64,000 nt of DNA from Spirochaetia bacterium (GCA_965208575.1 CBDBOV010000001.1:128001-192000); one strand, 5' to 3'; positions 5,690 to 61,050 are shown, counted from the stretch's first letter. Notes: generated by a model not told the origin, from the letters alone. A program made the numbers and translations.

Positions 5690-5847
5690 TAGCGCAGCGC
5701 CAGTATCTCGCCCCGCCGCATCCCGGACTACATCGCAACCCGGAAGATCGAGCGGGTCGCCGGAATCCTTCACCGCCGCCTTGATGCCGCGGTGCCAGTT
5801 AGGGCAGCGCTCCTGCGGGCGACGAGATCACCCGCCGCACGATCGGG
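5690..5847 (-). pseudogene. Integrase fragment F1
   Basis: Degenerate match to ~52300-52455 (GMRRGEI region). Confidence 0.85.
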
Positions 5848-5859
5848 ATGAGCGGTGAG

Positions 5860-6738
5860 CTAATCGATCTCGATCAGAATCCGACAGTGATCGCTCGGTC
5901 CCCATTCGTGAATCCCATTCAGGGCACGCGCCCTAACCCTCTTGTGAAACCCACGGGACGCGAATACGTAGTCGAGTTGGCGTGTGGCCGTTTCGGGGCT
6001 CTCCGCCGTCGTATGATACGTAGGTACATTCCTCGAGTCTGGAGGTTCGCAGAATGCCGTCGGTGCACAGTAAGCCATCCTACCTGCCGGGTATTGGGGA
6101 CCGACCAATTCCAGCCCGATGGCCTTCATCCTGTCGAATACTCCGTTGCATCGTTCATCCAAAGCTTGTGGGTCGTGGTCCGATGCTCGGTAGATCATGT
6201 TGAGATCACCGGCGACCAGTAGTCGGTGGGACGAGGGATCGACATCCCCGATGAACGCCGAAAGATCCGATATGATCCGGTGAGCTGACCCATCCGGATA
6301 ACCCACCTTCCATTTGCTTCGAGTAGTGGGGTGGGGCTTGAACCATCGTGCATACATGGACACGACGATGAAGGGCTCACCATTCGGGGGGATCACACGT
6401 GCCGCAGCTATCGTGCTGATACCGCTAACGGCGATCTCGTCACAGTTTACTCTTGAGACCGGACCTACTTGCTTGAACCACTCGACGCTCACCCCGCTGG
6501 CCTTGTGCTTCACGACCATCGTCCGCAGGTCTACCAGATTGGGAAACTTCCCACACCACCAGCAGGAATTCCATTTGGACGCGTCCCAGTGTTCTTTCGG
6601 ACCGGTTTCTATATCACCTAGCACCTCGTCTGGCACACTGCATCCTTCCTGGATGAGCGCAACGTCGACGTTCATGTCGCCGAGGCAGCACCATGATTTC
6701 TTGATGTGATTCATGTTCCAACACACTATCCGTACCAT
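5860..6738 (-). CDS. Endonuclease/exonuclease/phosphatase family protein
   Basis: RIVCWN, DVALIQE, VAGDLN, LDYVFAS and GPSDHC motifs. Confidence 0.9.
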   Translation of the reverse strand: MVRIVCWNMNHIKKSWCCLGDMNVDVALIQEGCSVPDEVLGDIETGPKEHWDASKWNSCWWCGKFPNLVDLRTMVVKHKASGVSVEWFKQVGPVSRVNCDEIAVSGISTIAAARVIPPNGEPFIVVSMYARWFKPHPTTRSKWKVGYPDGSAHRIISDLSAFIGDVDPSSHRLLVAGDLNMIYRASDHDPQALDERCNGVFDRMKAIGLELVGPQYPAGRMAYCAPTAFCEPPDSRNVPTYHTTAESPETATRQLDYVFASRGFHKRVRARALNGIHEWGPSDHCRILIEID

Positions 6739-6948
6739 TTCCGAACCTCTACCAGATGGTGGCGGGAAATGCGACCGTCACGGTTGTGGTGCCCGAAAGC
6801 AACGGAGTAGCCGTGTTCTATCGAGAACTTGCACCGCACGGCAGCATCCTTGTAAGCGCAACGAGCGCAACGCGTTAGCCGGTCCGTTCGAAGAACATGC
6901 CGTGATACCCACATGGCCTGCCGAGCAATCCTGTGAGGAACCCAAGGG

Positions 6949-7020
6949 ATGTTCAACGGTGGAGAGTGTTTATTTCCGGTCTTGGTTGGCAGTGTCCAAG
7001 ACTACCGACGTGGTAGATAT
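6949..7020 (-). promoter_or_regulatory. Conserved upstream element, copy C
   Basis: Reverse complement atctaccacgtcggtagtc...accggaaataaacactctccaccgttgaacat; faces CDS 6738. Confidence 0.6.
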
Positions 7021-7219
7021 TGGAACGCTGCAAACACCGCCATCGGCGTGCAGGCAGCACGCACTGTGCTCGCGCCGGCCCCGTCCGCTCCGAACCGCAC
7101 CGCGGGCCGATAGCGTCAACCCCCGAACAGGGTAGGGTGGGATTCTGTCTCCCGTGTCCCGACTCTGGCGCGCCTTGAATCGCTTGTCAGGTCAAGATAG
7201 CGTGTTGTGTGCCAGAGCG

Positions 7220-10056
7220 ATGACAGACGACGGAGAGCGGGGGCGAGCGGCGCGCGAGGGCGCCGCGGAACGGGACATGCTTGGAGGTGTGGAGTCGGCG
7301 CCGCTGGAGGCGCCGTGGCTGCTGCGTTATCGGGTGGAGCTGCCGGATCCGATCGAGGGTCATGTCCGGCGTCCAGCCGTGGAGGAACGGTGCGCTCTCC
7401 TGGACCGCCGCCTGACGGTGCTGCACGCCCCCGGGGCTTCGGCAAGACGGCTCTGCTCGGCGAGCGTTGCCGCGCGCTGCGCGCACGAGGCGTGGCGGTC
7501 GCCTGGCTCTCGCTCGACGAGGAGGACGGACCGGGAGCGGTGGCGGCCTACCTCGCCCTGGCATTCGAGCAGGCCGGCCTGGCGACTGTCGGCACCGCGG
7601 GTGAACCGGGAAGGTCAATCGAAGCCAAAGGCGCGGGGCGTGACCAAGCGGCGGCCAGTCAGACCGAGTACCGCCTCAGCCTGCTGATCCGCGCGTTGGA
7701 GCGGCGAAGCGAGCCGTGCGTGCTGGCGCTCGACGAGTTGGAGAGGCTGTGCAACCCCGATGCAGTCGCGGTGATCAACTCGTTGCTCCGGCGTGCGCCG
7801 CGCACCCTGCACGTTGGTATGGCGTTCCGGGAACGGCCACCGGGGCTGGACATTGCGATGTTCGCGCTCGAAGGGCGGGCAGCGACGGTGACCGTAGACG
7901 ACCTGCGATTCTCGGCGCAAGACGTGTCTCGATTCTTCGACCGGCGGCTGTCGCGCCGCGAGTTGGCCGCCGTGGTGGCCGGCTCGGCAGGCTGGCCGAT
8001 CGCGCTGCGCATGTACCGCAACGCCGGACCGAAAGGGCTGGCGAGCGCCGCGGGTGACGACGACGCGGTGGCCGGATGGATTGAAACGCGGCTGTGGCGT
8101 GGCATATCGGCGGAGGACCGCGACTTCGTGCTCGACATCGCGCTGTTCGACGGTCTCGACCCCGATCTGATCGACGAGGTGACAGGGGCGGGCAATTCGG
8201 CCCGGCGGCTGGCCTCGCTGGGAGCGCTGGCCGGGCTGTGGTCCACCACTCGCACCGAATCGGCGATGCGGCTGCATCCGCTTATCAAGGACCGGTGCGA
8301 GAAACAGCGGTTCGAGGAAGACCCGGAGCGCTTTCGGGCCATCCACCGCGGCATCTGCGTCGCGCTCGCGCGCCGCGGTCAGGTCGTTGCGGCGTTGCGC
8401 CACGCCGTAGAGGCCAACGATGCGGACTTGCTCGGTCCGATCGCGGAGGGTCAAGGCGGAGTCAGGCTTTGGATGGAGCAGGGCCTGGAGGCGCTGCGCA
8501 CGGTCGACAACCTGCTGAGCGAGCCGATCCGCGCGAGCTACCCTCGACTGGCACTGGTGCGTTGCATCGTCCTGACCGCGTCCGGCGACATCCGCGGCGC
8601 ACTACGGGTCTACGAAGCCACGGCCTCGGCAACCGACGGCTTCACGCACGATCGCAAGGGTGGCGACGACCGGGCGTTGCAGATTGAACACCACTTCGTC
8701 CTGGGCCAGCAGTACATGTGCGGCTGCAAACCGTTCGCGGACGGGATCCTTCCGCTTGCCCTCGCGAAGGGGGTGGCGGAAGCCCCCGACACTGACCCGT
8801 GGCTGCGCGCGTTCTTCTGCCTGGGGATGTGCATCGCGTCCAACCAGTTGACGGCGTTCGACGAGTCCGTCGAGTGGGCGGAGCGCGCGCGGGCGATGTT
8901 TGGGCGCGGCTCGCCATACTTGGCTCACGTCGACTTCCAGGCGGGGTCGGTGGCCATGGCGACGGGGCGCCCGCAGGAGGCCCGTTCCTGCTACGAGCGT
9001 GCGCTGAAGGTCGCGCGGGCGAGCCACCTGCGCGATGCGGGCGCGGTATTGATCGGTGACGTGCTGGCGGCGGAGTTGGCGCTGGAACGCTCGGCCGGTA
9101 TGCCCCCCGAAGGCACGCGAGTTTCCCCACGGCTGCTCGGGGAGTGCAGCGCATGGCTCGACATCTACACGGCGAGCATCTGGGTGGAGGTAGAGCGTGA
9201 GTTGGTGCGTGGCGGTCCGGAGGTGGCGCTGCGGCTGGTCGAGGACGCACTCGAATACGCGCGTCATACCGAGCGACCGCTGCTGGCACGCTGGCTTACG
9301 GCGCTACGGGTCTCCGTGCTGCTTGCCGGCGACATGGTAGAAGCGGCGAGCCGTGCGTGGCGGTACGATCGGCTGCCGGATACGGCCGCCGCCTGTACGG
9401 ATCTGCACAGCCAGAGCTGGCGGGAGGTGGAGATGCTCGCCTGTACCCGGATGCGCCTGTCGATCGCGCTCGGCGACTTCGACGCCGCCCGCGAGATTGG
9501 CGGCACGCTGGATGCCGTCACCGCGGAGCGCGGGCTGGTACGGACGCGGATGCGCGGGCTGGCGCTGGCGCTGGCGCTGGAGCACCGGGCCGGCAACGGA
9601 AAGCGCGCGCGGGCGCACCTGGCGGGGTTCTTGCAACTGTTTGCCGAGGCGGACTACGCGTGGCCGCTTGCGCGCGAGCGGACGGTCGCCCGTGCGCTGC
9701 TCGACGATGCCGTGGACAGCTTCAAGGCTGCCCCCGCCCTGGCGGAAGCAGCCGCCGTGCTGCGGGCGGCCGTGGATGACAGCGCCGTCGCAGGTGTGGA
9801 CCAGGTGCACCGGATCCTCACTCAGCGCGAATTCGACGTGTTGGAGCGACTCGAACGTTACCGCGACAAGGAGATCGCCTGGGACCTGAAGTTGTCCTAC
9901 GACGGCGTACGTTTTCGCGTGCGCAGCATCTTCGCCAAGCTCGGCGCGCGCGGACGGCTCGACGCCGTACACCGGGCCCGCGCGCGCGGCATCCTGCCTC
10001 CCGCCGACGACGCGGCGGAGGCAGAGTCGTCGCCGCACCATGTGCCGACTTGGTGA
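7220..10056 (+). CDS. MalT-like large ATP-binding LuxR-family regulator, 1-nt frameshift near 7430
   Basis: LHAPG/GFGKT Walker A is split between the frames of ORFs 7154 and 7207; LALDE Walker B, SAGWPIAL, RLHPL, C-terminal LuxR HTH (LTQREFDVL..KEIA..L..S...V..IFAKLG). Confidence 0.85.
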
Positions 10057-12650: not shown

Positions 12651-13169
12651 CTACGACACCGCGTCGCAGTGTGCCAGCTCCCAGCCGTGGAAGACCAGCG
12701 CCAGCCCCGTGAACCGCACGCCCGGAAACTGCCGCGCCAGCCGCTCGTCCGCCAGGTAGCGCGCGAGTTGGGTGGTCGCGTCGCTCACCGCCGCCGCCAC
12801 GGCGTCCCGGTCCGCCGACTCGCCGCGCTGAGAGCGCCTATGGCGATCGAGGTACTTCAGCTCGATCAGGTAGCCGTGCCGCAGGTGCGGGAAGCGCGCG
12901 AGCAACGGCTCCAGGCTGATGTCCGCATGTCCCTTTCCCAGTTCCGCCTCGGAGCGGAACCAGTCGGCCGCGTAGCCCTCGGTCACGTCGGTGGGCCGGG
13001 CGTGGTTGACCAGCCGCTTGGTCGGCGACCGCGGCAGCGTCAACTCGCGGTCGGCGATCGTGATCAGGCAGTTGCGGAAGCCGTGGAACCAGAACTTCCT
13101 GCCGCCCGCCCGCGAGATGCGGGCATAGAGGTGGGTGAGCACCGAGACGTGGCCCGACCGGCTCGCCGG
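12651..13169 (-). pseudogene. Integrase fragment F2 fused in frame to the PD-(D/E)XK C-terminal domain of an AAA-ATPase-like gene
   Basis: HGFRN..LVNHA..EGYAADW joined to FRSEAELGKGHADI..YLIELKYL. Confidence 0.85.
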
Positions 13170-14084: not shown

Positions 14085-14320
14085 GAGCGCGCCAGGCTAA
14101 CTGGCGGAGGGGTAAGGGTGAGAGTCCCTGGAAAGAAGGATGAGCCAGTCTACGATTCACCGCGAGCCGTGCAGCGATATCCGTGAGGGTGTCGGTGAAG
14201 CGTCGGTAGCGGAGCGTGTGGGCAGGGTATTGAGCGCCGAAACTGATATGTTCCCGAATGTGCCGAGGCTCTTCTCATGGTCGAAGGCAATATCGGGTGC
14301 GCCGCTATGGCGAGGCGCAG
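14085..14320 (+). ncRNA. Group II intron 5' fragment (domain I), no RT or domain V
   Basis: ggtgagagtccc..gaagg..cgagccgtgc..ccgtgaggg..gaagcgtcggtag..attgagc..gaaa..gtgccga..gaaggcaatat follows bacterial group II domain I. Confidence 0.65.
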
Positions 14321-14439
14321 CTGCGCAGCCAGCGCCCGGATGCCAGACCAAGCGCCAGAAACTCCGCCGGTGCCGCTGCCACCCGCCGCCAGCTCCCGCC
14401 GCGACCGCGATCGGCAGCGCTCAACGGCGGCATGCTGGT

Positions 14440-15240
14440 ACCGTATCGTCCTGCTCGGCTACGATCCGCGCCTGCAGCGACCGGAGAACATCGTGCACTT
14501 CTTCCACGACGTGTGCGGCGACGTACGGATTACGCCGGAGGTGTTGGCACGGCGCACCGCCACCTGTCGGCGGTGGCTGGACAGCTACGCCGAGCAGCAC
14601 AGGGTGACGGTCCTGACGGCGCCGAAGGGTGTCCGCAAGGAGCAGGTGGTCGCGCCCTACTACCGCTCGTTCAAGGCTGACGCCGGCGTGGTCGTGATCC
14701 TCAAAAGCATGGAGCAGAGCCCCACCTTCATCTCCTATGAACCGCGTCATACCCCGCCGAGCGGCGATGATTTACCGGGTCATCAAGCGCGCCCGCAAGC
14801 GATTCCTGCATTACTATTCTACGTTCTGGACCCGATCATGGGGCCGATGAGCCTGTGTGTTGCATCCTATCTGCCGTTCTCGGTGAATTGCTTCATGAAC
14901 GGCCACTCCTACGTCGCCGCCGAACTGCACCACGCCGGCGTACCGTTGCGCATGCAGGACAACGCCATCGTGGCTGCGCCGATCCCGAACTGCTGGCCAC
15001 CATCGCCGACCGTCTGGACGAACGCATCCTGCACCCAGCGCGCGAGCTACTGGGCAACCCGCTTGGCGCCACGGTTTAGTGCCCGCGAGCGCGCAAGATG
15101 CCAACTCGCCTATCAGTGGTCAGTGGCGCAGATCGAATTCGCCCGCGATGTGATCTTCAAGCGCCGCGCGCGGCTGCATGATCTGTTCCAGCGCGCGGTC
15201 GAGATTGGCGTCGCCGTCGGTGGCGCGACCCAGACCCGCG
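14440..15240 (+). pseudogene. Putative transposase fragment (frameshifted)
   Basis: QRPENIVHFFHDV..FYVLDPIMGPMSLCVASYLPF..MNGH..QIEFARDVIFK; family assignment from memory only. Confidence 0.5.
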
Positions 15241-15271
15241 TATTCATACAGATTCGCGTCTCAGTTCTTCT

Positions 15272-16118
15272 ACGGGCCGGCCTCCAGGATGGCGTCTATG
15301 CGGTCGGCGATGAGTTGGGCCGGCCCACGGAGCTGGCCGATGGTCCAGTCGGCCACGTAGCCCTCGGTCACGTCGGTGGGCCGGGCGTGGTTGACCAGCC
15401 GCTTGGTCAGCGACCGCGGCAGGGTCAACTCGCGGTCGGCGATGGTGATCAGGCAGTTGCGGAAGCCGTGGAACCAGAACTTCCTGCCGCCCGCGCGCGA
15501 GATGCGGGCATAGAGGTGGGTGAGCACCGAGACGTGTCCCGACCGGCTCGCCGGCGACGGGAACACGCAGCCGGTGCCGCCGGTCTCGCTGCGCCGCCAT
15601 TCCAGGATCGCCGCAAGCTGCCGGGTGATCGGCAGTTCGAGCGGGGTGCCGGTCTTGGTGTGCGGCACGTGCCCGACGCCGCGCGCCAGGTCCACGCGCT
15701 CCCAGCGCAGCGTCAGTATCTCACCCCGTCGCATCTCGGAGTACATCGCAACCCAGAAGATGGAGCGGGTCGGCGGGTCCTTCACCACCGCCTCGATGCC
15801 GCGCTGCCAGTAGGGCAGCGCTTCCGCGGGCGATGCGATCACCCGCCGCACGATCGGGTTGAATCGCCCGCCCGCCGCCAGCCACAGGTCGACCGGGTTG
15901 CGCAGCCCCTCGTGATCGACACAGGCGCGGCGGTAGACGGAGCGCAGGAGCGAAGTGACCTGGTTGCCGAATCGCCCAGCCGTGGTTGCTGGTGAGCAGG
16001 GCGAAGCGCGCCTCCACCTCGTGGCGCTCGATGGCGTTCAGCGGGCGCGGCACCCAGTCGGCGAGATGGTGCTTGATGGCGCGGCGTTAGGCGTCACCGG
16101 TCTTCGCCGAGCGGGAGG
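15272..16118 (-). pseudogene. Integrase fragment F3 (catalytic domain open in ORF 15270-15851)
   Basis: Matches ~51869-52715. Confidence 0.9.
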
Positions 16119-16834
16119 ACGGGCGGGGGTGTCAAGATTCAACCCGAAACCTCAGCCTACGCCGTCGCGGGGCGACAGTAAAGCGAGGGTCGGCGGGCGT
16201 CTGGCGGGCGTCAGTGTCCGATAACGCGCATTCGCTTTGGAGCCAGTTACTGGATGCTGTCGAACTGGACGTCCGCGTGGACGGCGGTGTGCGACCGCTC
16301 TCCAGCCTCGCGACCGCCGACTAAGTAGTCTTCATCCGCGCCGCCAGACCGCTTGTACAGTTCGGCAAGCGTGCTCATTTTCGGTCTCTCGCCGTCGGCG
16401 TCCGCCGGGTCTTCTTCATGTACGCTTGCACCTCCACGCCCCGCCGATCCTTCGTAGCGATATACAGTGCCCGGCGCGATGCCGTCCCGACCGCTGAAGG
16501 GCATTTCCCAAACGGGCAAGTGCCTGAAATGCGGGGCGCCGACTCACGTCGACGCGATGCAGCACCGCTACGCCGGCACCGATCGCGACGGGCGGCGATC
16601 CGCCGCACCGTCTCGCCTTCACGGCGGCAGCGGCGGTACAGTCTCGCCACCCCGTCGTAGTGCGCGGGTTCGGTGGGCAGCTCGCTCGCCCGGCCAGCAG
16701 CCCTCGAAGCGTTCAAGGTGCTCTCGTCTCGCGCTTCGGCGAGTACTTACATACGCATCGCGCTCAGACCTGCCGTAGCGTCAGCAAGCCGTCAGAGTGC
16801 GACAGGAAGGAAAATGAGAGGACGACAAGGTCAA

Positions 16835-18470: not shown

Positions 18471-18488
18471 TGGAGGGATGCAACGCGA

Positions 18489-18765
18489 GCGCGAGGTGCG
18501 GGCGTAGAGGAGGTGGGTGAGCACCGAGACGTGGCCCGACCTGCTCGCCGGCGAAGGGAACACCCAGCCGTTGCCGCCGGTCTCGCTACGCCACCATTCC
18601 AGGGTCGTCGCAAGCTGCCGGGTAGTCGGCAGTTCGAGCGGCGTACGGGTCTTGGTGTGTGCGGAACGTGCACGACCCCGCGCGCCAGGTCCACGCGCTC
18701 CCAGCGTAGCGCCAATGTCTCGCCCCGCCGCATCCCGGAGTACATTGCACCCAGAAGGTCGAGCG
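18489..18765 (-). pseudogene. Integrase fragment F4
   Basis: Degenerate match to ~52088-52363. Confidence 0.85.
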
Positions 18766-18887: not shown

Positions 18888-19319
18888 CTACGCCGCTCGC
18901 GTGGCAACCGTAAGGCGCTGGCCCAGTGCATGGAGCGCCGTCTCGACTTGGCCGACGTGCGATCGGTGGTCGAGGTCGATCAGCCGCCGCACCGCGCCTT
19001 CGCTCAGCCCGAGCCGCTCCGCGAGCGCGGTATCGCTGACGCCCTGCTCGCGCATCGCGCCGTAGAGCGCAATCTTGGTGGCAACCAGCACCGGCAGCGC
19101 GACTGCCGTCCGCCCGCGAACCGGGGACGGCGCGGGAATCGGCTGGCGGCCCTCCACATACCCGCCAAGGGCGGCTATCACGCAGTCCTGCGCCTCCGCC
19201 AGCGCGTCGGCTTCCGTCGCCCCTTCGGTCAACGCCTCCGGGATGTCCGGGAACGAGACGAGGATCGACCCGTCCTCCTGCCGTTGCAGGTCCGCCGGCC
19301 AGACCAGTGTCTGCGTCAT
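18888..19319 (-). CDS. hicB: HicB-family antitoxin
   Basis: ILVSFPDIPEALTEG.T..DALAEAQD, C-terminal HTH; AGGAGG RBS. Confidence 0.9.
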   Translation of the reverse strand: MTQTLVWPADLQRQEDGSILVSFPDIPEALTEGATEADALAEAQDCVIAALGGYVEGRQPIPAPSPVRGRTAVALPVLVATKIALYGAMREQGVSDTALAERLGLSEGAVRRLIDLDHRSHVGQVETALHALGQRLTVATRAA

Positions 19320-20379: not shown

Positions 20380-20697
20380 GTGAGCGCCGAGGTCGTAGCC
20401 ATCGTCGGCGTTGGCGTGGCGCTGCTGGCCGTGCTGGTGCCGCTGCTGCTGACCGTGGCGGCCCGCTTGGAGCGGCGCATTGACACCCTGGCGGCCGAAC
20501 TGGCGTCGGCGCGCACCGAGCTACGCGCCGACGTGGCCGAGGTGCGCCGCGACCTGCACGCCGAGGCTACGGCCATCCGCGCCAACGTGCACGCCCTGGC
20601 AGAGCGGGTGGCGCGCATCGAAGGCACCATGAGCGGCCCCTGGCGCCCGGCGAACGGCAGTCCGGCGAGCACCCAGGGGGCGTCGTCGGCCGGCTGA
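20380..20697 (+). CDS. Small TM + coiled-coil protein
   Basis: Shares LRADVAEVRRDL..LAERVARIEG..GPWRP with its paralogs. Confidence 0.8.
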   Translation: MSAEVVAIVGVGVALLAVLVPLLLTVAARLERRIDTLAAELASARTELRADVAEVRRDLHAEATAIRANVHALAERVARIEGTMSGPWRPANGSPASTQGASSAG

Positions 20698-21520: not shown

Positions 21521-21650
21521 GATGCTTGGTGAGCAGGATGAAGCGCGCCTCCACGCCGCGGCGCTCGGTGGCGTTCAGCGGCGCGACGCCCTGTCGGCGA
21601 GATGGTGTTCGATGGCGCGGCGGTAGGCGATACCGGTCTTCGTCGCGTGG
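21521..21650 (-). pseudogene. Integrase fragment F5
   Basis: Matches ~52585-52710; joined directly to the int-downstream flank. Confidence 0.8.
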
Positions 21651-48611: not shown

Positions 48612-49104
48612 AAATCCGCGCCGCGATGCCGACCGCAAGCGGGAACTGAAGCGGGAGGCACAAGCGCGGCGCAACGCCGGCCATGTGGACGCCACGCAGG
48701 TGCGCTACCGGGAGCGGTCGACGGTGGAGCGCGTCAACGGTCGGCTGAAGGACGAATTCGGCGCCCGGCAAGTACGGGTGCGTGGACACAGCAAGGTACT
48801 GTGCCACCTGATGTTCGGCATCCTGGCGTTGACCGTGGACCAGTTGTTGCGCTTCGTGAACTGAGCCAGACCTCTGTTCTGCCCCCTGTAGCGCCGCAGC
48901 CAAGCTGATCTCCAGCAGGAGATAGGGCACCGTTCTGTCCGCACGCTGCCTCCCGAAGGCGCATGGCCCGTGGATTCTGGCCGGCTTCAGGCGCTGCTGA
49001 GGCTCTACGCCGAAAATTCGTCGAAGCTACCTAACAAAACCGCTCATCCTGTTCTCACCTCCCCAGCTTCTTCAGCAGCGCTCCAGAGTTTCTGCAAAAG
49101 GCTC
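48612..49104 (+). mobile_element. IS5/IS1182-like remnant (transposase 3' end + terminal IR)
   Basis: YRERSTVERVNGRLKDEFG..RG..KVLCHLMFGIL; ends ttctgcaaaaggctc. Confidence 0.7.
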
Positions 49105-49148
49105 CTACTATCCACAAAATGGGGTCACACCCCATGCGAGGCCGTTGC

Positions 49149-49394
49149 TCAGGAAAAATCGGGAGGTTCGCGCATCGGGCCGCGCGGCGGGAGTTCCAAC
49201 TCGACACCGCCAAGGGGCGCGAAACACTCGCGGGTGAATTCCGTCAGGTTCCGAAAATGGGGCTTCCCCTGACTCACGGCGTCACGCAAGATGATGCGCG
49301 CCTCCTCTTCCATCGAACGGCGGTGCTCGGCGGCGCGTACGCGCAGACGCGTTTTCACATGGTCATCGAGATTGCGGATGGTGATGCTCGCCAT
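49149..49394 (-). CDS. FitA-like antitoxin, second copy (toxin absent)
   Basis: Protein identical to 32163-32408. Confidence 0.9.
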   Translation of the reverse strand: MASITIRNLDDHVKTRLRVRAAEHRRSMEEEARIILRDAVSQGKPHFRNLTEFTRECFAPLGGVELELPPRGPMREPPDFS

Positions 49395-50039
49395 GGTGAG
49401 GTCCTCCGTTCCTGCGGTGCCTATTCTATAGGATGATTGCGGTGCAATCAAGTTTGCCGCGGGATGCCGGTGGGGTGCCGGGGTGCCAACACGAGTGGGC
49501 CGTCCCCTCGCCCAATCGGAGCCCAAATCCTCGCCTGAGTTTCGGAGGACCGCCGCCAGCGCCCCTCAGGGCCGACGACTGGCCGACGGACGGCTCGCGG
49601 GAGGGGTGCGACGGGGTGGAGGTCAGACTGCACCGGACGGCTGGCGAAGGACGAGTGGCCAGAATTCCGTAGCTGCTGACCGTGGCGGCCCGCTTGGTGC
49701 GGCGCACTGACACCTTGGCGGCCGAGCTGGCGTCGGCGCGCACCGAGCTACGCGCCGACGTGGCTGAGGTGCGCCGCGACCTGCACGCCGAGGCTACGGC
49801 CATCCGCGCCGACGTGCACGCCCTGGCGGAGCGGGTGGCGCGCATCGAAGGCACCATGATGGGCCCCTGGCGCGCGGCGAACGGCAGCCCGGCGCCCTCG
49901 ACCAGCACGGCACCGGAGGCGAGGCCGTGACCGACGAGGCTCCCACCGTGCCGACTATACGCGGCGTCTATCGTCTGGACCGCATGACCGGCCCTGTTGG
50001 AACAGTTGCTGTTCGCTTCGTTCAAGGGCGGCGACGCGA

Positions 50040-50870
50040 TCGACCGGCATAGCACCTCCGCTTCCAGTGTCGTACGCGGACCTACGTAAATCTCGCTCTC
50101 CTCGCGACCCGCGCCCCGCCAACGGAACAGGTCGAGATTGCGGAAGAGACCGGCGATCATCGAGAGATCGGCGTCCTGTGCGCTTCCGGTGACGGCACGC
50201 ATCAGAAGATTGACCGGCCGCAGGCAGTCGAGGCTCCCAGCTACCATGACGAAGTCGATGAGCAGATGCACCGTGTCTTCCGAGTCGTCCGGTAATTCGT
50301 TACCACGTTCGTCGAACAACGGTTGGTAACGGCTGACGATACCCGCATCCAGCAACCTCTGATGGAGCAACGTCATCGGCTCGACCTGCCGGGTCTGGCG
50401 ACCTCTTGAACGCAATTCGATGGCCGCCGTTCGCGCCTCTCTGTTCAGGCCAGCACCAATGCGCGGCCGGCTGGCTGGAAGCAAACGGTACAAGGACGAC
50501 AGTATGTGGCCCGGTTCCGAGATGCTTCGATCCGATATGTCGACGTGCCTGCCGACCAGGGCAGTGAGTCTGTCTTCTTCGTCGTCCGACAGTCGGGCGG
50601 GAGCTACGATCCCGGCTTGATTCTGACCCTCCGTACCCAGGTCGCTACGATACTGAGAGCCAACAACCACCGTGCGACGACCACGGCTCCGTAAGCCCAT
50701 GAGCAACTCGTAGTAACGATCGTATTCCGCGTTCGCGTCGCACACGATCAAGGTGGCGGCGGCGCCGGCCCGCTCGGCGGACTCGCAGAACTCGGACACG
50801 TCGCGTGACACCGGTACGCGTCCCATCGCATAATCCAGCACCCGGTCCAGCAACGGCACCGCATGTCGAA
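50040..50870 (-). pseudogene. Internal fragment of a large NTPase-like gene
   Basis: Protein-like segment (TLIVCDAN, TVVVGS) inside chimeric ORF 49426-51660. Confidence 0.4.
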
Positions 50871-50984: not shown

Positions 50985-51117
50985 GTCGACCGGGTTGCGC
51001 AGCCCCTCGTGATCGACGCAGGCGCGGCGGCAGATGGAGCGCAGCAGCGAGATCACCTGGTTGCCGATCGCCCAGCCGTGCTTGCTGCTGAGCAGGATGA
51101 AGCGCGCCTCCACCTCG
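50985..51117 (-). pseudogene. Integrase fragment F18
   Basis: Matches ~52486-52617; joined to the PIN fragment through shared ccacctcgc. Confidence 0.85.
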
Positions 51118-51702
51118 CCGCGGGTTGTCGTCGACCTCTACCGTGAAGGGGTTATTGGCCTGCCCAAGGCGCGGACGGCCCTGGAGACGCTGGCGGTCGC
51201 CGGTAGATATCCGCGTGATGTCATGGCTGCCGCATTGGTGGCGTTGCTGGAGGAGCAGCAGGATGACCAAACCCATGACCATCCGCCTTCCTGAGGATGT
51301 CTTGAGCGAACTCGGCCGGGCGCGCGCAGGCAGCCGGCAAGGATCGAGCGACCCTGGTGCGGGAGTTGCTTCGGGCTGCACTGGACCGGGACAAGGAAGA
51401 TGAGGTCGTAACCGGCTACGTGTCCGGTCGCCTTGCCCCTGTCGCAGGCCGGCGCGCGACTCGGCACCGACGGATGGTCGCTGTTCGACATCCTCGCACG
51501 GAGGGGCGAGACGGTGAGCGTATCGTTGGAAGATTGGAGGGACTCGACTACGTCGCGGGCGCCTGAGCCGCCCTGTTGAGGTTGGCCGACGGGAGGGGTC
51601 CACCACGCCGCTGCCGCGGGCTGATCCGTTCCGCCGACGGAGGCTCCGCTCCATCGGCATCGGCGAGGATCGCCGTCCTGCCGGCGGTCCGGACGGGCGC
51701 TT

Positions 51703-51721
51703 GTCAACACTGGGTCAACAC
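51703..51721. promoter_or_regulatory. GTCAACAC-N3-GTCAACAC doublet, candidate integrase arm-type sites
   Basis: Conserved at 33481, 36524, 38876, 42514 and 51703; CAACAC doublets also upstream of int at 53123-53142 and 61083-61102. Confidence 0.5.
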
Positions 51722-51796
51722 CGGTCGCCGCGCGGCAACCGGCCCGCACTCGGCACCGGGGTGGCCACCGGCGTTGCGTGCACCGGGTGCGGCGGC

Positions 51797-53089
51797 TCAC
51801 CCTGCCGCCGCCGGGTCGGGGTGGCCGGCGTCGGGCTGCACGGTTTGCCCCTCGTCCTGCTCACACTCCGGGCCGGCCTCCAGGATGGCGTCTATGCGGT
51901 CGGCGATGAGTTGGGCCGGGCCGCGGAGCTGGCCGATGGTCCAGTCGGCCGCGTAGCCCTCGGTCACGTCGGTGGGGCGGGCGTGGTTGACCAGCCGCTT
52001 GGTCAGCGAACGCGGCAGGGTCAACTCGCGGTCGGCGATCGTGATCAGGCAGTTGCGGAAGCCGTGGAACCAGAACTTCCTGCCGCCCGCGCGCGAGATG
52101 CGGGCATACAGGTGGGTGAGCACCGACACGTGGCCCGACCGGCTCGCCGGCGACGGGAACACCCAGCCGGTGCCGCCGGTCTCGCTGCGCCGCCATTCCA
52201 GGATCGCCGCAAGCTGCCGGGTAATCGGCAGTTCGAGCGGGGTACCGGTCTTGGTGTGCGGCACGTGCACGACGCCGCGGGCCAGGTCCACGCGCTCCCA
52301 GCGCAGCGTCAGTATTTCGCCCCGCCGCATCCCGGAGTACATGGCAACCCAGAAGATCGAGCGGGTCGCCGGGTCCTTCACCACCGCCTCGATGCCGCGC
52401 TGCCAGTAGGGCAGGGCTTCCGCGGGCGACGAGATCACCCGCCGCACGATCGGGTTGAACCGCCCGCCCGCGGCCAGCCACAGGTCGACCGGGTTGCGCA
52501 GGCCCTCGTGATCGACGCAGGCGCGGCGGTAGATGGAGCGCAGGAGCGAGATCACCTGGTTGCCGATCGCCCAGCCGTGCTCCCTGGTGAGCAGGATGAA
52601 GCGCGCCTCCACCTCGCGGCGCCCGATGGCATTCAGCGGGCGCGACACCCAGTCGGCGAGATAGTGCTCGATGGCGCGGTGGTAGGCGTCGCCGGTCTTT
52701 GCCGAGCGGTAGGACTTGGCGCTCATGAAGTCGCCGAACGCCTCGCACAGCGTCGGCATGCTCCGCGCCCGCGCGCGCTTGTCCGCCGGATCCTGGCCAT
52801 CGGCCACCTTGCCGAGCATCTGGCGGGCGATCCGACGCGCCTGCTCGGGCGTCACGGGGCCGAAGCGCCCGATCACCACGCGCTTGTTGGGCGCCTTGCG
52901 TCCGCCGTCGCCGGCGCGGTAGTTGACGATGAACGACTTGAGCCCCGAGGGCTGGACGCGAACGCCGAACCCGATGAGCTTGTCGTCCCATGCGATGAAC
53001 GCCTTGGCGGACGGCTCCAGCGCCGCGACGTTCCGTTTGTTCAGCGTCAGCCTGAGCCGCGCGGTACGCTTCCCGGTCGTCAATTCCAT
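51797..53089 (-). CDS. Tyrosine recombinase/integrase with N-terminal arm-DNA-binding domain
   Basis: WDDKLIGFGVRV.PSG.KSF..Y..IGRFG..T.EQAR; GMRRGEI, HTKTG, HGFR, LVNH, EGY; candidate promoter TTGATG-N17-TACCGT. Confidence 0.95.
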   Translation of the reverse strand: MELTTGKRTARLRLTLNKRNVAALEPSAKAFIAWDDKLIGFGVRVQPSGLKSFIVNYRAGDGGRKAPNKRVVIGRFGPVTPEQARRIARQMLGKVADGQDPADKRARARSMPTLCEAFGDFMSAKSYRSAKTGDAYHRAIEHYLADWVSRPLNAIGRREVEARFILLTREHGWAIGNQVISLLRSIYRRACVDHEGLRNPVDLWLAAGGRFNPIVRRVISSPAEALPYWQRGIEAVVKDPATRSIFWVAMYSGMRRGEILTLRWERVDLARGVVHVPHTKTGTPLELPITRQLAAILEWRRSETGGTGWVFPSPASRSGHVSVLTHLYARISRAGGRKFWFHGFRNCLITIADRELTLPRSLTKRLVNHARPTDVTEGYAADWTIGQLRGPAQLIADRIDAILEAGPECEQDEGQTVQPDAGHPDPAAAG

Positions 53090-53266
53090 GATTCCTGAAC
53101 GGTACCAGCACGATACGCTTTCATCAACACGAGGTGCAACACACGTGTCATCATAGTGGAGATTGCCGGTCCGTGCGTTCTATAGATACACGGAAACGCC
53201 ACCAACAAGTCGTAGAGTCGCACCTCGGAACACACAGATAGACGTGGTTCAACGAATCAATTCTAT

Positions 53267-54502
53267 ATGACACAGAGGGTTGCACGCCCGATGAAATTCG
53301 CGGCGTTCATTTCGATAATCGTTTCCGTGGCGGTTCTGTTCGCCGCCTGCCAAGGCGCCGTAGGTCCCAAGGGCGATCCCGGCGCAGATGGCAAGGATGG
53401 CACGCACGGCAAGGATGGCGCACCCGGCACGCCGGGGGCACCGGGCGAGCCGGGCCCGTCGGCTCTATACAAGACGTTTGATGCGTCCAATTACGCCGTG
53501 TACCTCAACAATGGCACGGTGGCGGACTCGGCGGGAGATCCGGTGATGGTTACCCTCAGCGAGCTTTTCAACGGCGGTATCGGAGAAGTCACCGTCAGTG
53601 ATCTCGGAACTCCTCTTAGTGCCGATGGAAGCTCCATTGCCGAGGCCGAGAGGATCTTCACCGCTGAGGTAGAGAATGGTGTTGTGACGTTCGCCGTTCG
53701 GATGGACAACGCCGATCCGCCGGCGCCGGCAGTTGCCAGCAACCAGTATGTTGTTAACAATTACCCCGTTACGATTGCTGATGACGCTGGGCCGGACCTG
53801 ACGCTAACCTTGTCCGTGCGACGGAATCAGCCGCCAGTGGCGCCCACTTTGGACGCTTTTTCCTTGGGTACCGACGACGCAGAGTTGGATAATGCACGAA
53901 CCGCCACCAACTTGAGTTGTGATACCCAGCACGAGTGCACCCTCACCGTTCCTGGTACCGATCCCAACACAGCCACCGGCGATATGTTGAGCTATGCTAC
54001 CGACTTCGAAAGCAACGCATTTGAGGTCGTAAGTGTTAAAGGTAACCAGATCGTCTTCCGCGGTCTGTCAACGACCAGCGATGGTGACGCCGCGACCACC
54101 GACGATTCCGTCGAAGTCACAGTTACGATTACCGACATGGGAGGTTTGGAAACCGAGGCAACTGTGGACGTGACAGTCGACGAAGCACCTCGCGGTAACA
54201 TACCGAATTTGAGCACGAAGTACGGCACGGGATCAGTGCGAACCCTGATCACTGACTTGGATGGGTTCTTTTCGGACCCGGACGGTGACGACGCCGCCCT
54301 CACTTATGAACTCAAGCCCAATGTCGTAAAAGCAAATATTGCGACGGTCACTGTTGCGGAGGTTGGCGGCCTGTATACCATGACGGTTACCCCGACCTCT
54401 TCTAACGGCGGTTCGACCGCCGTGACGATAGTCGCGATGGAGCCATCCGGCGGTCTGACGCAGAGTGGGGAAGCAACATTTACACTCACGGTGAACCAGT
54501 AG
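53267..54502 (+). CDS. Surface lipoprotein, collagen-like G-X-Y linker + cadherin/Ig-like beta domains
   Basis: Lipobox FAAC; GPKGDPGADGKDG..; FFSDPDGD, VTITDMGG. Confidence 0.85.
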   Translation: MTQRVARPMKFAAFISIIVSVAVLFAACQGAVGPKGDPGADGKDGTHGKDGAPGTPGAPGEPGPSALYKTFDASNYAVYLNNGTVADSAGDPVMVTLSELFNGGIGEVTVSDLGTPLSADGSSIAEAERIFTAEVENGVVTFAVRMDNADPPAPAVASNQYVVNNYPVTIADDAGPDLTLTLSVRRNQPPVAPTLDAFSLGTDDAELDNARTATNLSCDTQHECTLTVPGTDPNTATGDMLSYATDFESNAFEVVSVKGNQIVFRGLSTTSDGDAATTDDSVEVTVTITDMGGLETEATVDVTVDEAPRGNIPNLSTKYGTGSVRTLITDLDGFFSDPDGDDAALTYELKPNVVKANIATVTVAEVGGLYTMTVTPTSSNGGSTAVTIVAMEPSGGLTQSGEATFTLTVNQ

Positions 54503-56982: not shown

Positions 56983-57258
56983 ATGCGATGCCCCTTGTGA
57001 ATACGTGCGCAACCGGCGCACCCTACTTGCCATTATCGGGGAAGCGACCCAGGACGGACAGGGCCAGGAGATCGTCCGGCGGGTTCCCGGAGCGACCCGA
57101 ACCGCCTCATCGCTCGCTGCTGAATCAAGGGCAATCGAACCACGGAGTACCCGATGGCCCGCCTTGCCGAGTTCCGTCAGACGGATTGATTGCACATAAC
57201 TACATGCTCTATAATATGTTATCGCCTACTCAAAAAGTGAGCGTTCTCGGGGTGTCCC

Positions 57259-57735
57259 CGGGGCCTTTACCACCGCCTCGATGCCGCAGCACCTGTGGCT
57301 GTTCGCCGACCGTACCTCGACGGCGACGACGGGTGCCAATCAGATACGGCTGTACTTCTCCGCCTTTGCCGGCATCCTGTCGACGACCCTGCGCCGCGCG
57401 GGACTGCAGGGAACCGAGCTTGCCAACGCGCGCTTCGACACCGTCCGCGCGCGGCTGATCAAGCTCGCGATCGCGTGGGGAGCGGCTTCCGCTCGGGATA
57501 GATGATGAGAGCCTTGAATGGTTCGGCCACGGGGGCCTCCCGTGGCCGCGGAGCTGGCCGATGGTCCAGTCGGCGGCGTAGCAGTAGCCCTCGGTCACGT
57601 CGGTGGGCCGGGCGTGGTTGACCAGCCGCTTGGTCAGCGAACGCGGCAGCGTCAACTCGCGGTCGGCGATCGTGATGAGGCAGTTGCTGCGGAAGCCGTG
57701 GAACCAGAACTTCCTGCCGCCCGCGCGTGAGATGG
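57259..57735. pseudogene. Integrase fragments F19 (57259-57288, 57544-57735) around an IS1380 transposase fragment
   Basis: LFADRTS..ANQIRLYFSAFA..GTELANA..RARLIKLA on the + strand. Confidence 0.75.
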
Positions 57736-57758
57736 GGGCAGGATCTGTAAAACGGTGG

Positions 57759-57857: not shown

Positions 57858-57952
57858 ACTCGTTCATATCAGGTTAATCTTTGTAGTACATACCTTTATT
57901 ACCATTCAGTACTCTTCATACTATTGTTATAAGAACCTCAGGAGGGTACTTG

Positions 57953-59968
57953 ATGCGTACTGCTGCATTCATCGACGGCCAGAACCTCTACCACTTGGCT
58001 AGGAACGCTTGGTCCCGCAACCCATCAGACCAGTACGGCTGGCCCAGTTACGACGTTGAGAAGCTGTCGACAGCGCTCGTTCAGCAGGCCTTTGGTTGCG
58101 GTCTCTCTCAAATTCACTTCTACACAGGTGTCCCGCCTACTGGACCGTGGCACCGTTTCTGGAGCAACAAGATCCGGGTTCTAAAGAATAAAGGGATCTA
58201 CGTCTATCGGGGACGAGTACGACAACAACCTGGGGGCCAAGGCCAAGAGAAAGGCGTAGATGTGAGTCTATCCATCGATATAGTGAGAAACTTGACGTGG
58301 ACCCGATAGGTTGGACAGTGGATGGGATATTGTAGAGTGCATCTCGTTCGTTGTCAACCCACCCTCCTGGTCGAGATGATCAGGCGGCGGTAATGGGGGT
58401 GGGGTCCGGGGAGGGGGTGAGCGAGCCTGTGGATATGTGGATACTTCGTCCCCACTGCTCGCGCTCCCGTTGGTCCTCGGATGCCCTTGCACCCCATGCC
58501 AACCGCCTGCCGTTCCTGTTCGCTACGCCACCTCCTGCTGTTGTTCCGCCACCCCGTCGCGGTACGCTTCCGCGGGCGTACGCCCGCCGAGCGCCGAGTG
58601 TGGTCGGGTCTCGTTGTAGAATGCCATCCACCCGTCGATCACCCGCTGCGCCTCGAAGCCATCCTCCAAATCGTGCAGGTATACCGACTCGTACTTCAGC
58701 GAGCGCCACAACCGTTCGATGAATACGTTATCCAGACAACGACCGCGCCCGTCCATCGAGCACCGTATCCCGGTCGCCTCCAACTGGCCGGTGAACGCGA
58801 TGCTGGTGAACTGGCTGCCCTGATCGGTGTTGAAGATCTCGGGAATGCCGAAGTCTTCCAGAGCGTCCGCCAACGCCTCCAGGCAGAAGGAGGTGTCCAT
58901 CGTGTTGGACAGCCGCCAGGCCAACACCCGCCGGCTCGCCCAGTCCATGATCGCCACCAGGTACAGAAATCCTCCCTGCACCGGGATGTAGGTCAGGTCC
59001 GCGCACCACACCTGGTTCGGGCGCTCAATCGTAAGCCCTCGCAGCAGATACGGATACACCCGATGGTCCGGGTGCGCGACGCTGGTGCGTGGCTTGCGGT
59101 AGATCGCCTCCAGCCCCAACAGCCGCATCAGCCGCCGCACCCGGTGCCGACCGACCCGCTTTCCCTCGCGTGCCAGATGGCGCATCATCTGCCGGCTGCC
59201 GTAGAACGGACATTCCAGATAAAGTTCGTCGATGCGGCGCATCAACGCGAGCGTGTCAGCGCTCTCGCCCACCGCTCGGTAGTACAGCGTCGACCGGTTC
59301 AGCCCGATCAGGCGGCACTGCCGGCTGATGCTCAGACGGTCGTGCTCGCGGTCGATCATCTCTCGTCGCTCGGCCCGGCTCAGCGCCCGAGCCCGCGTGC
59401 TAAAAAATCGCGCTCCACGGTCAACTCCCCGATCTTGGCATGCAGGTCGTGAATGGTCTCATCGTGCTCCTTCTGCCGCCGGCTCCGGCCGTCGGCGAAC
59501 AGGTCCCGCAGACCGGTCTGAGCCTGCCGCTTCCAACTGCTGATCTGGTTCGGATGTATTTCGTGCTTGGCCGCGATCGCCTGGATCGTACGGTCTCCCC
59601 GCAGCGCCTCCATCACTACCTTCGCCTTGAACTCCGCTGTGAACCGACGCCTCTTCGTCGCCATCTTGCTGGCCCTCCTCGTGGCCTTGGATACACTCTA
59701 CCATACCGTCCGTTTTTCCGGGACCAGCTCAACTACCTACGGCCAAGAGTACGACGCAATACTAATTGTAAGCCAAGACTGGGATTATGGTCCTGCGGTA
59801 CGTCTGGCGAAGAACATCGCGCGAACGCAAGGTCGGCAGCTCGCGTTCGCATCGGCCTTCCCCTACCATCCTGGAATGCCCCAACGCGGAGTTCCAGGAA
59901 CAACGTGGATCCATATCGACAAAGCGCTCTACGATAGGTGTCACGACCCTACCGATTACCGCCTGTGA
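57953..59968 (+). pseudogene. NYN (LabA/DUF88) domain RNase interrupted by IS3
   Basis: AFIDGQNLY..FYTG..EKGVDVSLSID | YDAILIVSQDWDYGPAV. Confidence 0.9.
58293..59731 (-). mobile_element. IS3-family element
   Basis: IRs tgacgtggacccg..ggac / gtcc..cgggaccagctca; ACT duplication; orfA 59380-59664; orfB 58523-59359 (WCADLTY, NTDQGSQF, DNVFIERLW). Confidence 0.92.
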
Positions 59969-60059
59969 ACCTGGTAAGGCTGGGCGGCGGCAACCCGCCA
60001 GGGGGCGCACGTCGCCAGAATCGGACGCCGGGGATTGTCCAAGTACCACCTTGCCGGTC

Positions 60060-60766
60060 GGCGCATCTTCCGCCATCGCCTCCCGCAACTGCCGCAGCAC
60101 GAAGGCGCACTCCGCCGGGTACTCCCCTTCCTCGATCGTCAGCACGTGTGCGTCACCCCGTCCGTTGCCCTTCACCAAGCCCTGGTCGAAGATCGCCAGC
60201 ACGCGCTCCAGCTCGTCCCGCCGCCGGCTCGCCAGCCGCGGGATCTGGATGATGTGGCTGCGGTGATGGATGCCCTCCACCAGTGGATGCTCGCCGCAAG
60301 CTCCCGCCCCGTGCGCCGCTCGGTCACCCGCGGACAGACGTCGATCACCGCTTCGTCCGACAGACCATCCGGGGCGTAGCCCAGGAAGTAGATCGTCACG
60401 ATCGGCACGCTTCGGCGCGGCCCGAAGGGAGGGTGAGGATGGTGTCCCCGCTGGCGACCGCTGGGCCAGGTAGCCCCGGAAGCGCTCGATCACGGTCTGC
60501 GCGTAGGCCTTCAGGATCTCGATCAGCACCTGCTGCTCGCTGCCGTCGCGGGTCTGAACCCGAGCCGCGAAGGTCATGCGCAGCAGCGTCAGCGGCAGGT
60601 CGTGCTCCGGGTCTTCGGGGGTGCGGCGCAAGGCCGTCCCCTTCGGGCTGACGGTGAGCGATTGCACCGCGAGGCCGGTGATCCTGCCGATCAGCAGGCG
60701 GGCGACGCGCTGGTTCTGCATCAGGTACGTCAACACCACGTCGTAGATCGGGTTGGCGACGTCCAC
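60060..60766 (-). pseudogene. PD-(D/E)XK nuclease-like protein, frameshifted and truncated
   Basis: VANPIYDVV..YLM.N..VA..LI; VLIEI.KA; PIVTIYFLGY in an alternate frame. Confidence 0.6.
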
Positions 60767-60894
60767 GCCAGCATTGAAACCTGCGGCCCGCGCGTTGCGT
60801 CAATCGCCTTGCCCGTGTTGCGGTGATCGGTGCGGCGGCGGTGTCATGCACCGACGGGCGTGCTCCCTGGTCTATTGCCGGGGTCGGGCGGAAC

Positions 60895-61050
60895 GACTTG
60901 AGTCCCGAGGGATGGACGCGAACCCCGAACCCGATGAGCCTGTCGTCCCACGCGATGAACGGCTTGTCGGACGGCTCCGGCGCCGCCACGTTCCGTTTGT
61001 TCAGCGTCAGCCTGAGCCGCGCCGTGCGCTTCCCGGTGGTCGATTCCATG
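60895..61050 (-). pseudogene. Integrase fragment F20 (5' end only)
   Basis: MESTTGKRTARLRLTLNKRN..GLKSF. Confidence 0.9.

Follow-up and report, generated by a model that had tools for sequence, protein, structure and literature searches.

A candidate long-lived integration hotspot built of co-oriented integrase relics in a Spirochaetia genome

How does one integrase gene come to lie in some two dozen pieces, nearly all in the same orientation, among unrelated genes? The question is raised by a stretch of 64,000 nucleotides from a Spirochaetia bacterium (GCA_965208575.1, CBDBOV010000001.1:128001-192000), hereafter the window, whose positions are counted from its first letter. It corresponds to C1:128001-192000 of a genome (G000) of 6.5 Mb, 67% GC and six contigs. 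A first-pass annotation had described the locus as a cargo array scaffolded by pieces of the integrase gene int at 51797-53089, and had proposed that the int sequence itself is the recurring junction. The reading that we favour, with reasonable though far from complete confidence, is that this is a hotspot of long standing, at which related small elements with a leading int gene were added in tandem before decay and recombination reshuffled them.

We used the intact int gene (window 51797-53089, minus strand) as blastn query, and give positions on this gene as q numbers. There are 26 high-scoring segment pairs (HSPs) in the window, with 85-97% identity and E-values from 1e-5 down to 0, starting at 5691, 12960, 15270, 18486, 21527, 23361, 26307, 27872, 27999, 29982, 31634, 33244, 33309, 33575, 36620, 38475, 38653, 38705, 38970, 42614, 45085, 50985, 51797, 57254, 57544, and 60891. 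All but one (45085-45208) of the 26 are on the minus strand, and the 21 positions listed in the first-pass annotation, together with its single exception at 45.1 kb, were all recovered. In the whole genome, 29 out of 29 HSPs fall within C1:122,035-207,310 and none on the other five contigs, so the fragments are neither equally dense nor randomly oriented across the genome. The array runs past the window, leftward as two small scrambled pieces (window -5965 to -5801) and rightward as an arm of opposite orientation, with a full-length int (76769-78084, plus strand, 91%) and a partial one (78710-79347, plus strand). Within each arm the pieces are co-oriented, save for the plus-strand exception in the minus arm, and the array holds about 25 int relics. 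The copies in the window, located by blastn and where stated by a further method, are as follows.

5691-5851, minus strand: int piece, q632-790
12960-13169, minus strand: int piece, q940-1149
15270-16120, minus strand: truncated int, q375-1224, with two in-frame stops (also alignment)
18486-18765, minus strand: int piece, q727-1002 (89%)
21527-21651, minus strand: relic of the diverged type int_B, q380-505
23361-23903, minus strand: int piece, q752-1293
26307-26781, minus strand: int piece, q400-875 (also self-BLAST)
27872-28141, minus strand: int with an internal deletion, q1051-1187 and q391-532, with a 10-nt overlap
29982-30035, minus strand: int piece, q452-505
31634-31708, minus strand: int piece, q802-876, sharing a junction with the piece at 26307 (also self-BLAST)
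33244-33400, minus strand: int_B relic, q378-507, 85%, fused directly to the downstream module (M_d1) of the neighbouring copy (also alignment)
33575-34539, minus strand: truncated int, q331-1293, 95.8%, beginning exactly at the Met-111 codon, with two insertions
36620-37499, minus strand: truncated int, q421-1293, 92.9%, with many indels
38475-38796, minus strand: composite of q990-1160, q470-497, and q378-469 (diverged, int_B type)
38970-39723, minus strand: truncated int, q540-1293, 96.2%, with one in-frame stop
42614-43545, minus strand: truncated int, q357-1287, 96.2%, with one insertion
45085-45208, plus strand: int piece, q997-1120, the sole plus-strand piece in the window
50985-51122, minus strand: int piece, q469-606
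51797-53089, minus strand: intact int gene, the reference copy, an open frame of 430 aa with Pfam Arm-DNA-bind_3 and Phage_integrase
57254-57740, minus strand: int pieces, q692-725 and q984-1171
60891-61049, minus strand: 5' piece of int, q1-159, ended by a multi-copy element at 60066-60890

The protein encoded by the intact gene, Int, matches Pfam Arm-DNA-bind_3 (PF13356, residues 16-107, E 6.8e-16) and Phage_integrase (PF00589, residues 242-351, E 8.4e-12). Residues R255, H342, R345, and Y379, which we take to be catalytic, are unchanged across 15 members of the Int family. The IntI model (NCBIfam TIGR02249, integrase_gron) gives it 20.2 bits, against a cut-off of 265. Int is thus an arm-type (P4-like) tyrosine integrase and not an IntI, as the first-pass annotation had it when it set the array apart from integrons. 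Two int genes are still intact, 51797-53089 (minus strand) and 76769-78084 (plus strand), and both probably work, since purifying selection keeps both in two species (see below).

Every one of the seven long truncated copies on the minus strand is broken by in-frame stops or indels, yet their differences from the intact gene are distributed over codon positions 1:2:3 as 49:37:160, i.e., 65% at third positions. We computed the ratio of nonsynonymous to synonymous divergence (dN/dS, Nei-Gojobori) for the 86 pairs of copies that have 120 or more codons in common, including copies from a second species (G006). It lies between 0.12 and 0.42 in 85 of them, the exception (0.70) being a G006 pair. Most of the divergence would therefore have arisen in working int genes. 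The third-position differences reported in the first-pass annotation are borne out by these counts, and the copies look like the distinct alleles that it took them for, diverged under purifying selection. We also projected 28 int fragments onto the gene; coverage reaches 14 at some positions, which implies that at least 14 separate int gene copies contributed to the array.

The same numbers bear on a quite different role, that of a silent, promoterless int reservoir which, like pilS, diversifies an expressed Int by gene conversion. The silent copies do lack the promoter and the N-terminal third, one or two expressed copies keep both, and the alleles are mosaic. However, variation that is mostly synonymous means that conversion would alter the protein little, and seven out of seven long copies are disrupted by stops or indels. 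We regard such a reservoir as very improbable.

We compared 11 genomes of the genus. int matches were found only in G000, G006, and G001, the last having remnants only. G006 belongs to a different species and was assembled independently. Over C1:106-121 kb, its contig C156 (86.8 kb) matches G000 collinearly at 86-94% identity; the contig also holds all the G006 matches to int-containing DNA and carries an array of 16 int HSPs (14 minus, 2 plus). Both intact int genes of G000 have positional orthologues there (dS about 0.11, dN/dS 0.30 and 0.21), the orthologue of 51797-53089 (dN/dS 0.30) being 94% identical. In the phylogenetic tree, the plus-arm copies of the two genomes form one clade with 100% bootstrap. 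This clade and the positional orthologues indicate that the hotspot is older than the split of the two species. The segment between the arms is kept but inverted (G006 65.7-77.5 kb corresponds to G000 C1:202.4-190.9 kb).

The cargo shows a very different degree of conservation. We tested 44 fragment-end probes in G006 and found 16 spanned: natural gene ends, the composite of M_d1 and int_B, the junction of the TacAT toxin-antitoxin cassette with q1160, and the q159 cut. None of the 17 cargo-side junctions at window-right fragment ends (16 5' ends of minus-strand copies and one end of the plus-strand piece) is present in G006. Of the 25 unique cargo segments that reach 500 bp between window positions -4860 and 62884, 3 are at least half covered by C156; for the whole array the count is 9 out of 32. 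Searches of the whole G006 genome, in which 40 of 337-421 first-look candidates were scored and cargo matches may thus be missed, add few more, e.g., 1518-2493 on another contig. The cargo order is not fixed, and the cargo turnover that the first-pass annotation had proposed to look for is plain between G000 and G006. Two segments stand apart. The TacAT cassette (37513-38517) is 99.0% identical to G006:C156:41795-42799, against a background of 86-94%, and the ends of this segment do not match M_d1 sites; the q159 junction probe (160 nt, window 60811-60970) is 98.75% identical. Their similarity suggests recent exchange between the two species at the locus.

Elsewhere in the genus, G001 has an int remnant (G001:C1:6325080-6325557) in which q12-231 is joined to q422-658 by an internal deletion ending near q421; it sits at a locus syntenic with G000 C1:271-273 kb and not at the array locus. 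With 7.3 kb of the left flank as query, we looked for an empty site in five genomes of the genus that are complete or nearly so, but none was definable because the genes in this flank are members of multi-copy families with little synteny. Single-protein scans of public genome-contig and metagenome-contig collections found no close relatives; the wider family was reached only by a profile scan (see below). Parts of the window are present in sponge, coral-reef, and marine metagenome runs.

Could the array be an artefact, a mosaic of strain variants joined by the assembler through int repeats? The genome has an estimated completeness of 95% with 5.75% contamination, and contig depths vary between some cargo pieces: in two runs (X19 and X22, 81-85% of words, possibly the source sample) depth is lower over 34446-36162 and from 40550 on, depths here being neither copy numbers nor shares of cells. 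The main argument against an artefact is the independently assembled array of G006, with its like architecture, orthologous intact copies, and shared junctions. Besides, exact short contigs in X19 and X22 bridge junctions between int pieces and cargo (23874-25351, 26859-27929, 28105-29495, and 34446-36162). The joints listed in this check have sides of 20-49 letters and may stem from repeats or other strains. The copies are 3-15% apart, enough for accurate assembly. Independent sponge-metagenome runs contain cargo pieces at about 97-98% identity, and in runs X1 and X3 uncovered parts do not mean absence. Misassembly is, in our view, the least probable of the explanations considered here.

The array has also been rearranged by later recombination. 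Self-BLAST revealed three pairs of segments with identical internal junctions: 25479-26383 and 30843-31711 (94%), 33256-34330 and 38652-39723 (96%), and 32147-33061 and 49133-50043 (98.7%). Such pairs reflect either the duplication of segments or the arrival of composite units more than once. In three places M_d1 directly abuts int_B, a diverged relic that covers q378-507 and has 85-88% identity with the reference; the junction of 33244-33400 recurs at 21527-21651 and 38653-38796 as well as at two sites in G006. Insertion sequences (IS) have made further cuts: an ISKra4-family IS splits one M_d1, and a multi-copy element ends an int piece at q159. These data bear on the two roles that the first-pass annotation gave to the int sequence. 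As a recurring recombination junction it fails, because the breakpoints are not constant among copies and no motif is common to the flanks of the 17 printed junctions. As a homology anchor it fares better in part: accordion-like change has the indirect support of junction-carrying duplicates, the inversion in G006, and mosaic alleles, whereas nothing points to gene capture.

Taken together, these results outline a scenario in which C1:122-207 kb would be an integration hotspot, where small elements led by one arm-type Int were added in tandem and in one orientation, next to a second, older arm in the opposite orientation. Most units then decayed, int being truncated by IS insertions and by deletions whose end points are unrelated and whose junctions have no sequence in common. 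Recombination among int and int-flanking repeats reshuffled the array, leaving the duplications with their junctions, the inversion between the arms, and the mosaic alleles. Toxin-antitoxin modules penalise deletion of the DNA that carries them; such cargo would penalise loss of its units here, probably slowing it. The int pieces would thus be mainly scars that also offer direct-repeat homology for expansion, contraction, and inversion, with no sign of dedicated capture.

Two modules recur beside int copies.

53090-53401, minus strand: upstream module M_up, about 312 bp, with a second copy at 61050-61362 (self-BLAST of 52931-53401 versus 60891-61362)
51631-51796, minus strand: downstream module M_d1, about 170 bp, past the stop codon (alignment, self-BLAST, and motif search)

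M_up precedes the intact int and the 5' piece 60891-61049, includes the 5' end of a divergent collagen-like gene, and carries the paired motif TGTTGC-N6-TGTTGA at 53124-53142, the two members being 12 nt apart, with a second site at 61084-61102. M_d1 follows the int copies that keep the stop codon. Its other copies lie at 33409-33574, 36451-36619, 38805-38969, and 42443-42613, and a split one at 23291-23360 and 21662-21741. It carries two GTGTTGAC repeats 11 nt apart, and a search for this paired motif gave 11 matches (1.84 expected), 9 of them inside M_d1 copies. The array has 7 of the 26 strict paired-TGTTGA matches of the genome; such pairs lie on both sides of the intact int, in direct orientation, and also after relics with a complete 3' end. 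We considered M_up as a common source of signal peptides for variable secreted proteins and dropped the idea: the divergent upstream genes in loci of the wider family are unrelated and housekeeping-like.

To place Int in a broader context, we scanned one genome per species with a profile, which gave 323 loci, of which 80 (L033-L112) were kept. They encode proteins with 58-75% identity to Int in metagenome-assembled genomes (MAGs) labelled Alphaproteobacteria, Acidobacteriota, Gemmatimonadota, Binatia, Gammaproteobacteria, Nitrospinaceae, and others, often with several copies per genome. In 36 of the 80 loci a TGTTGN-N6-TGTTGN pair precedes the int start by 46-58 nt, and GTGTTGA occurs in 65 out of 72 upstream regions; the pair is probably an Int-binding or operator site. 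A pair with 11-nt spacing about 100-200 nt past the stop codon, as in M_d1, is present in 4 of the 80. Paralogues in one genome have in common only int and about 220-280 bp upstream, and two loci from different MAGs (L034 and L035) are 99.9% identical from -236 to beyond +6 kb and unrelated to the left of that. Both patterns suggest that the family is the leading module of integrative elements with cargo downstream, whose end would lie about 230-300 bp upstream of int. No cluster of neighbouring genes occurs in more than 11 of the 80 loci. A 2.35-kb insertion downstream of int in L053 (relative to L071) was considered as a cassette and rejected, since it has a long ORF (open reading frame) that reads in translation as transposase-like and is flanked by a 9-bp duplication; we take it to be an IS.

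Arm-type integrases usually, if not universally, insert beside tRNA or tmRNA genes. There is no such gene in the window, as the first-pass annotation had noticed; the nearest, tRNA-Pro at C1:102.5 kb, lies about 20 kb ahead of the first int fragment. Nor did we find a tRNA target in G006:C156, in the int region of G001, or within 3 kb of int in any of the 80 family loci. An Rfam search of the window at gathering thresholds, which used no attC model, matched only a group II intron piece, and self-BLAST of the window showed no short repeat family occurring once per unit. Cargo ORFs with family matches lie on the plus strand (2978-4126, 7207-10056, 37579-38443) and on the minus strand (5860-6738, 18888-19319), which differs from the co-oriented cassettes behind a common promoter that define integrons.

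Several observations weigh against tandem accretion followed by decay. We found no att direct repeats at unit boundaries: the 110-nt flanks of the 17 printed junctions have no common motif, and the sole recurrent flank is M_d1, next to int copies whose 3' end is kept. The units are small for integrative islands, the unique DNA from one relic to the next amounting to about 1-2.5 kb. Along the array, no significant trend was seen in fragment length or in identity (rho 0.25-0.41, p 0.055-0.27). A single int-like match is found in 69 of the 80 family loci, and in five other genomes with int genes of this type the copies lie scattered and are for the most part complete in length. Accretion is thus not usual for the family, and only G000 and G006 show relics packed in a dense array. 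The long-range order of the array rests on the assembly, since the read check used Logan contigs, which are short. Finally, the fragments cover the gene unevenly. Positions q1-330 are kept in 2-3 copies, against 8-14 for q390-1290, and seven independent 5' ends cluster at q331, 357, 375, 378, 391, 400, and 421, a pattern that random decay does not predict.

The deficit of the 5' third, which encodes the arm-binding domain, may result from selection against additional arm-binding domains and promoters, acting together with a tendency for deletions to be short, or from an unrecognised way of forming units. Each of the seven 5' ends adjoins different DNA, and the remaining fragment ends are scattered. 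Site-specific insertion into int at q331-421 was rejected because the flanks have no common end motif, and a 9-mer common to the int upstream region and q462 is within chance expectation. We also noted a palindrome, GTGTCGGACA, 5 nt past the 5' end of the copy at 27872-28141. In the form GTGTC(C/G)GACA it occurs at 28147-28156 and 43553-43563, 5-8 nt outside two independent 5' truncation junctions; a broader form is found about once per 64 kb of the genome.

The relations among the copies add a further difficulty. Minus-arm copies mostly group by genome and not by position in the tree, which could reflect in-place amplification or gene conversion as opposed to serial arrivals. Moreover, no single tree accommodates 340 of the 703 informative site pairs. 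The copies would therefore exchange sequence, which weakens the argument from dN/dS; a PHI-like test for clustering of compatible sites was not significant (p 0.87 and 0.71), and we rely on the high overall incompatibility alone. One may thus propose that one or two resident int genes were multiplied by unequal crossing-over, with unrelated DNA inserted later and no serial arrivals at all. The duplication of multi-module segments together with their junctions, the grouping by genome, and the extensive incompatibility of sites would all fit. Yet duplicates made after truncation should have dN/dS near 1, and the ratios are far lower, including that of copies 33575 and 38970 (0.18), which have a common downstream junction; with this process, about 25 different unique inserts would also need an origin of their own. 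We consider it improbable. It, the silent reservoir, and misassembly are all less likely than the integron-like platform to which we now turn.

This platform would be a capture system based on an arm-type Int that acts at or in int relics, for example at M_d1 with its paired GTGTTGAC, or in which the relics would be homology anchors for the uptake of foreign DNA; units made of the 3' part of int plus cargo would be excised and re-inserted. Much of the layout speaks for it. Downstream of an intact gene come co-oriented, 5'-truncated copies, and what separates them is small cargo, often low in GC, of about one or two genes, toxin-antitoxin modules among them. Paired TGTTGA motifs flank the intact int and follow relics with a complete 3' end, 7 of the 26 strict matches of the genome being in the array, and the upstream pair is conserved across the Int family. 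The 5' third of int is systematically absent, cargo turnover is strong, and the TacAT cassette is nearly identical between species within flanks of 86-94%. On the other hand, seven different 5' end nucleotides with unrelated flanks are unlike a site-specific crossover, the nearly identical TacAT segment ends off the M_d1 sites, there are six M_d1 copies for about 25 relics, cargo ORFs point in both directions, every one of the seven long relics has stops or indels, and there is no gradient along the array. On balance we find the platform unlikely. We are still more doubtful of its fullest version, a working device for capture and storage in which Int, or recombination on the promoterless 3' two-thirds of int, would add, remove, and reorder cassettes, toxin-antitoxin cassettes would anchor the array, and the 5' third would be absent by design. 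That it would serve bacteria with close sequence relatives in sponge metagenome runs is doubtful to the same degree. Tandem accretion with decay and reshuffling remains the reading that we prefer.

The DNA between the relics consists of genome-wide multi-copy elements, region-specific repeated modules, and unique segments of 0.5-2.5 kb. The unique segments often have a GC content of 0.51-0.63, versus 0.67 for the genome, in line with the low-GC cargo described by the first-pass annotation. The main features, other than int, are listed below.

2978-4126, plus strand: cargo gene whose product carries a VHL beta domain (Pfam, E 5.7e-9)
7207-10056, plus strand: MalT/LuxR-type regulator (Pfam), about 91% identical in G006 (DNA comparison)
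21754-23290, minus strand: ISKra4-family IS inserted into an M_d1 copy, with about 9 copies elsewhere in the genome (NCBIfam transpos_ISKra4, 230 bits versus a cut-off of 205)
25479-26306, plus strand: RHH/UPF0175 gene and an ORF of 113 aa, a repeated module beside int copies (Pfam RHH_1, self-BLAST)
37513-38517, plus strand: TacAT cassette, with a TacA-like antitoxin (Pfam TacA1, E 2e-17) and a GNAT toxin (GNAT families)
46127-48635, minus strand: IS3-family element, multi-copy (Pfam rve/HTH_21, HTH_Tnp_1)
58293-59734, minus strand: IS3-family element, about 7 copies (Pfam rve, HTH_Tnp_1)

The RHH part of the repeated module recurs at 30838-31160, 36095-36413, and 51251-51571 (self-BLAST). 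Other cargo with family matches includes an endonuclease/exonuclease/phosphatase-family protein, HicB, a leishmanolysin-like piece, a hint of MORN repeats, collagen-like proteins, and an NYN-domain protein. The cargo also includes many ORFans: ten further ORFs had no match in NCBIfam or PADLOC, and two Atlas look-ups returned no usable family. A search of a plasmid collection gave only IS3 matches. The first-pass annotation saw host-interaction genes in this cargo. The VHL-beta, collagen-like, MORN, and leishmanolysin-like proteins are consistent with that description, which does not extend to the toxin-antitoxin modules, the regulator, and the ORFans without a family match. VHL beta domains are mainly eukaryotic, and the VHL-beta protein is one of several eukaryote-like cargo genes.

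A few other features of the region deserve mention. The group II intron match (14121-14344, plus strand, Rfam group-II-D1D4-6, 112 bits, E 5e-31) is probably an intron fragment; the int relic at 15270 is some 0.9 kb away, and the ORF that comes after it (14277-15269) has no Pfam match. An element of about 14 copies, encoding a protein of the PDDEXK_9 nuclease family, is found in equal orientation at both outer ends of the array (window -1070 to -60 and 83040-83987). The block between the arms (window 64033-72787) encodes a 1712-aa repeat protein with an Ig-like match, an FGE-sulfatase-family protein, and a cytochrome P450. A repeated small ORF (20380-20697, 32697-32945, and 49682-49930) gives weak matches to Pfam Apolipoprotein and Baculo_PEP_C. 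A YhgA-like Transposase_31 protein encoded just beyond the right end of the array (L019:18050-18868) gives the same matches in its C-terminal part. On these shared matches, the small ORFs may be fragments of the YhgA-like Transposase_31 gene family.

If the locus is indeed such a hotspot, it offers an extreme and well-preserved record of how one site gains, keeps, and sheds small foreign genes. It is conserved in two species, with almost wholly different cargo in each and traces of many int gene copies, and would be a natural system in which to study island turnover, stabilisation by toxin-antitoxin modules, and recombination among int relics. The family itself, found at 58-65% protein identity in MAGs labelled as many phyla and with a conserved paired motif upstream, suggests a widely shared mobile module that is worth a description of its own.

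How does the array compare with known systems? Integrons and superintegrons have long arrays of small cassettes with many ORFans and toxin-antitoxin modules, a repeat between cassettes, fast turnover, and an integrase at one end. The array has all these features, including the intact integrase that ends the co-oriented run. It differs in that its Int is not an IntI and has an arm-binding domain, that cargo orientation is mixed, and that the repeat is a variable piece of int coding sequence without fixed breakpoints and not an attC hairpin. In rhs/cdiA orphan modules and in pilE/pilS, a full-length gene is followed by co-oriented, promoterless copies that lack the 5' part and provide homology for recombination. 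The layout of the array is similar, each copy having a small neighbouring gene, and the likeness is one of architecture only: the repeated gene encodes a recombinase and not a toxin or pilin, its variation is mostly synonymous and the protein is not diversified, and the long relics are broken.

The closest precedents for the scenario that we prefer are cases of tandem accretion at a single att site, i.e., the ssrA-linked islands of Dehalococcoides (PMC3146451), the asparagine-tDNA islands of Klebsiella (PMC4891358), and the accretion of integrative and conjugative or integrative and mobilisable elements (PMC5812530). They share with the array the co-oriented genes or relics of same-family tyrosine integrases at one locus and a variable cargo that differs between related genomes. 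The array differs from them in that it has no tRNA or tmRNA target or recognisable att repeats, that its units hold 1-2.5 kb of unique DNA, and that the 5' third of int is nearly always gone. With these oddities, the array would be an extreme case of tandem accretion, a process already known, its about 25 relics from at least 14 gene copies comparing with a handful in such islands.

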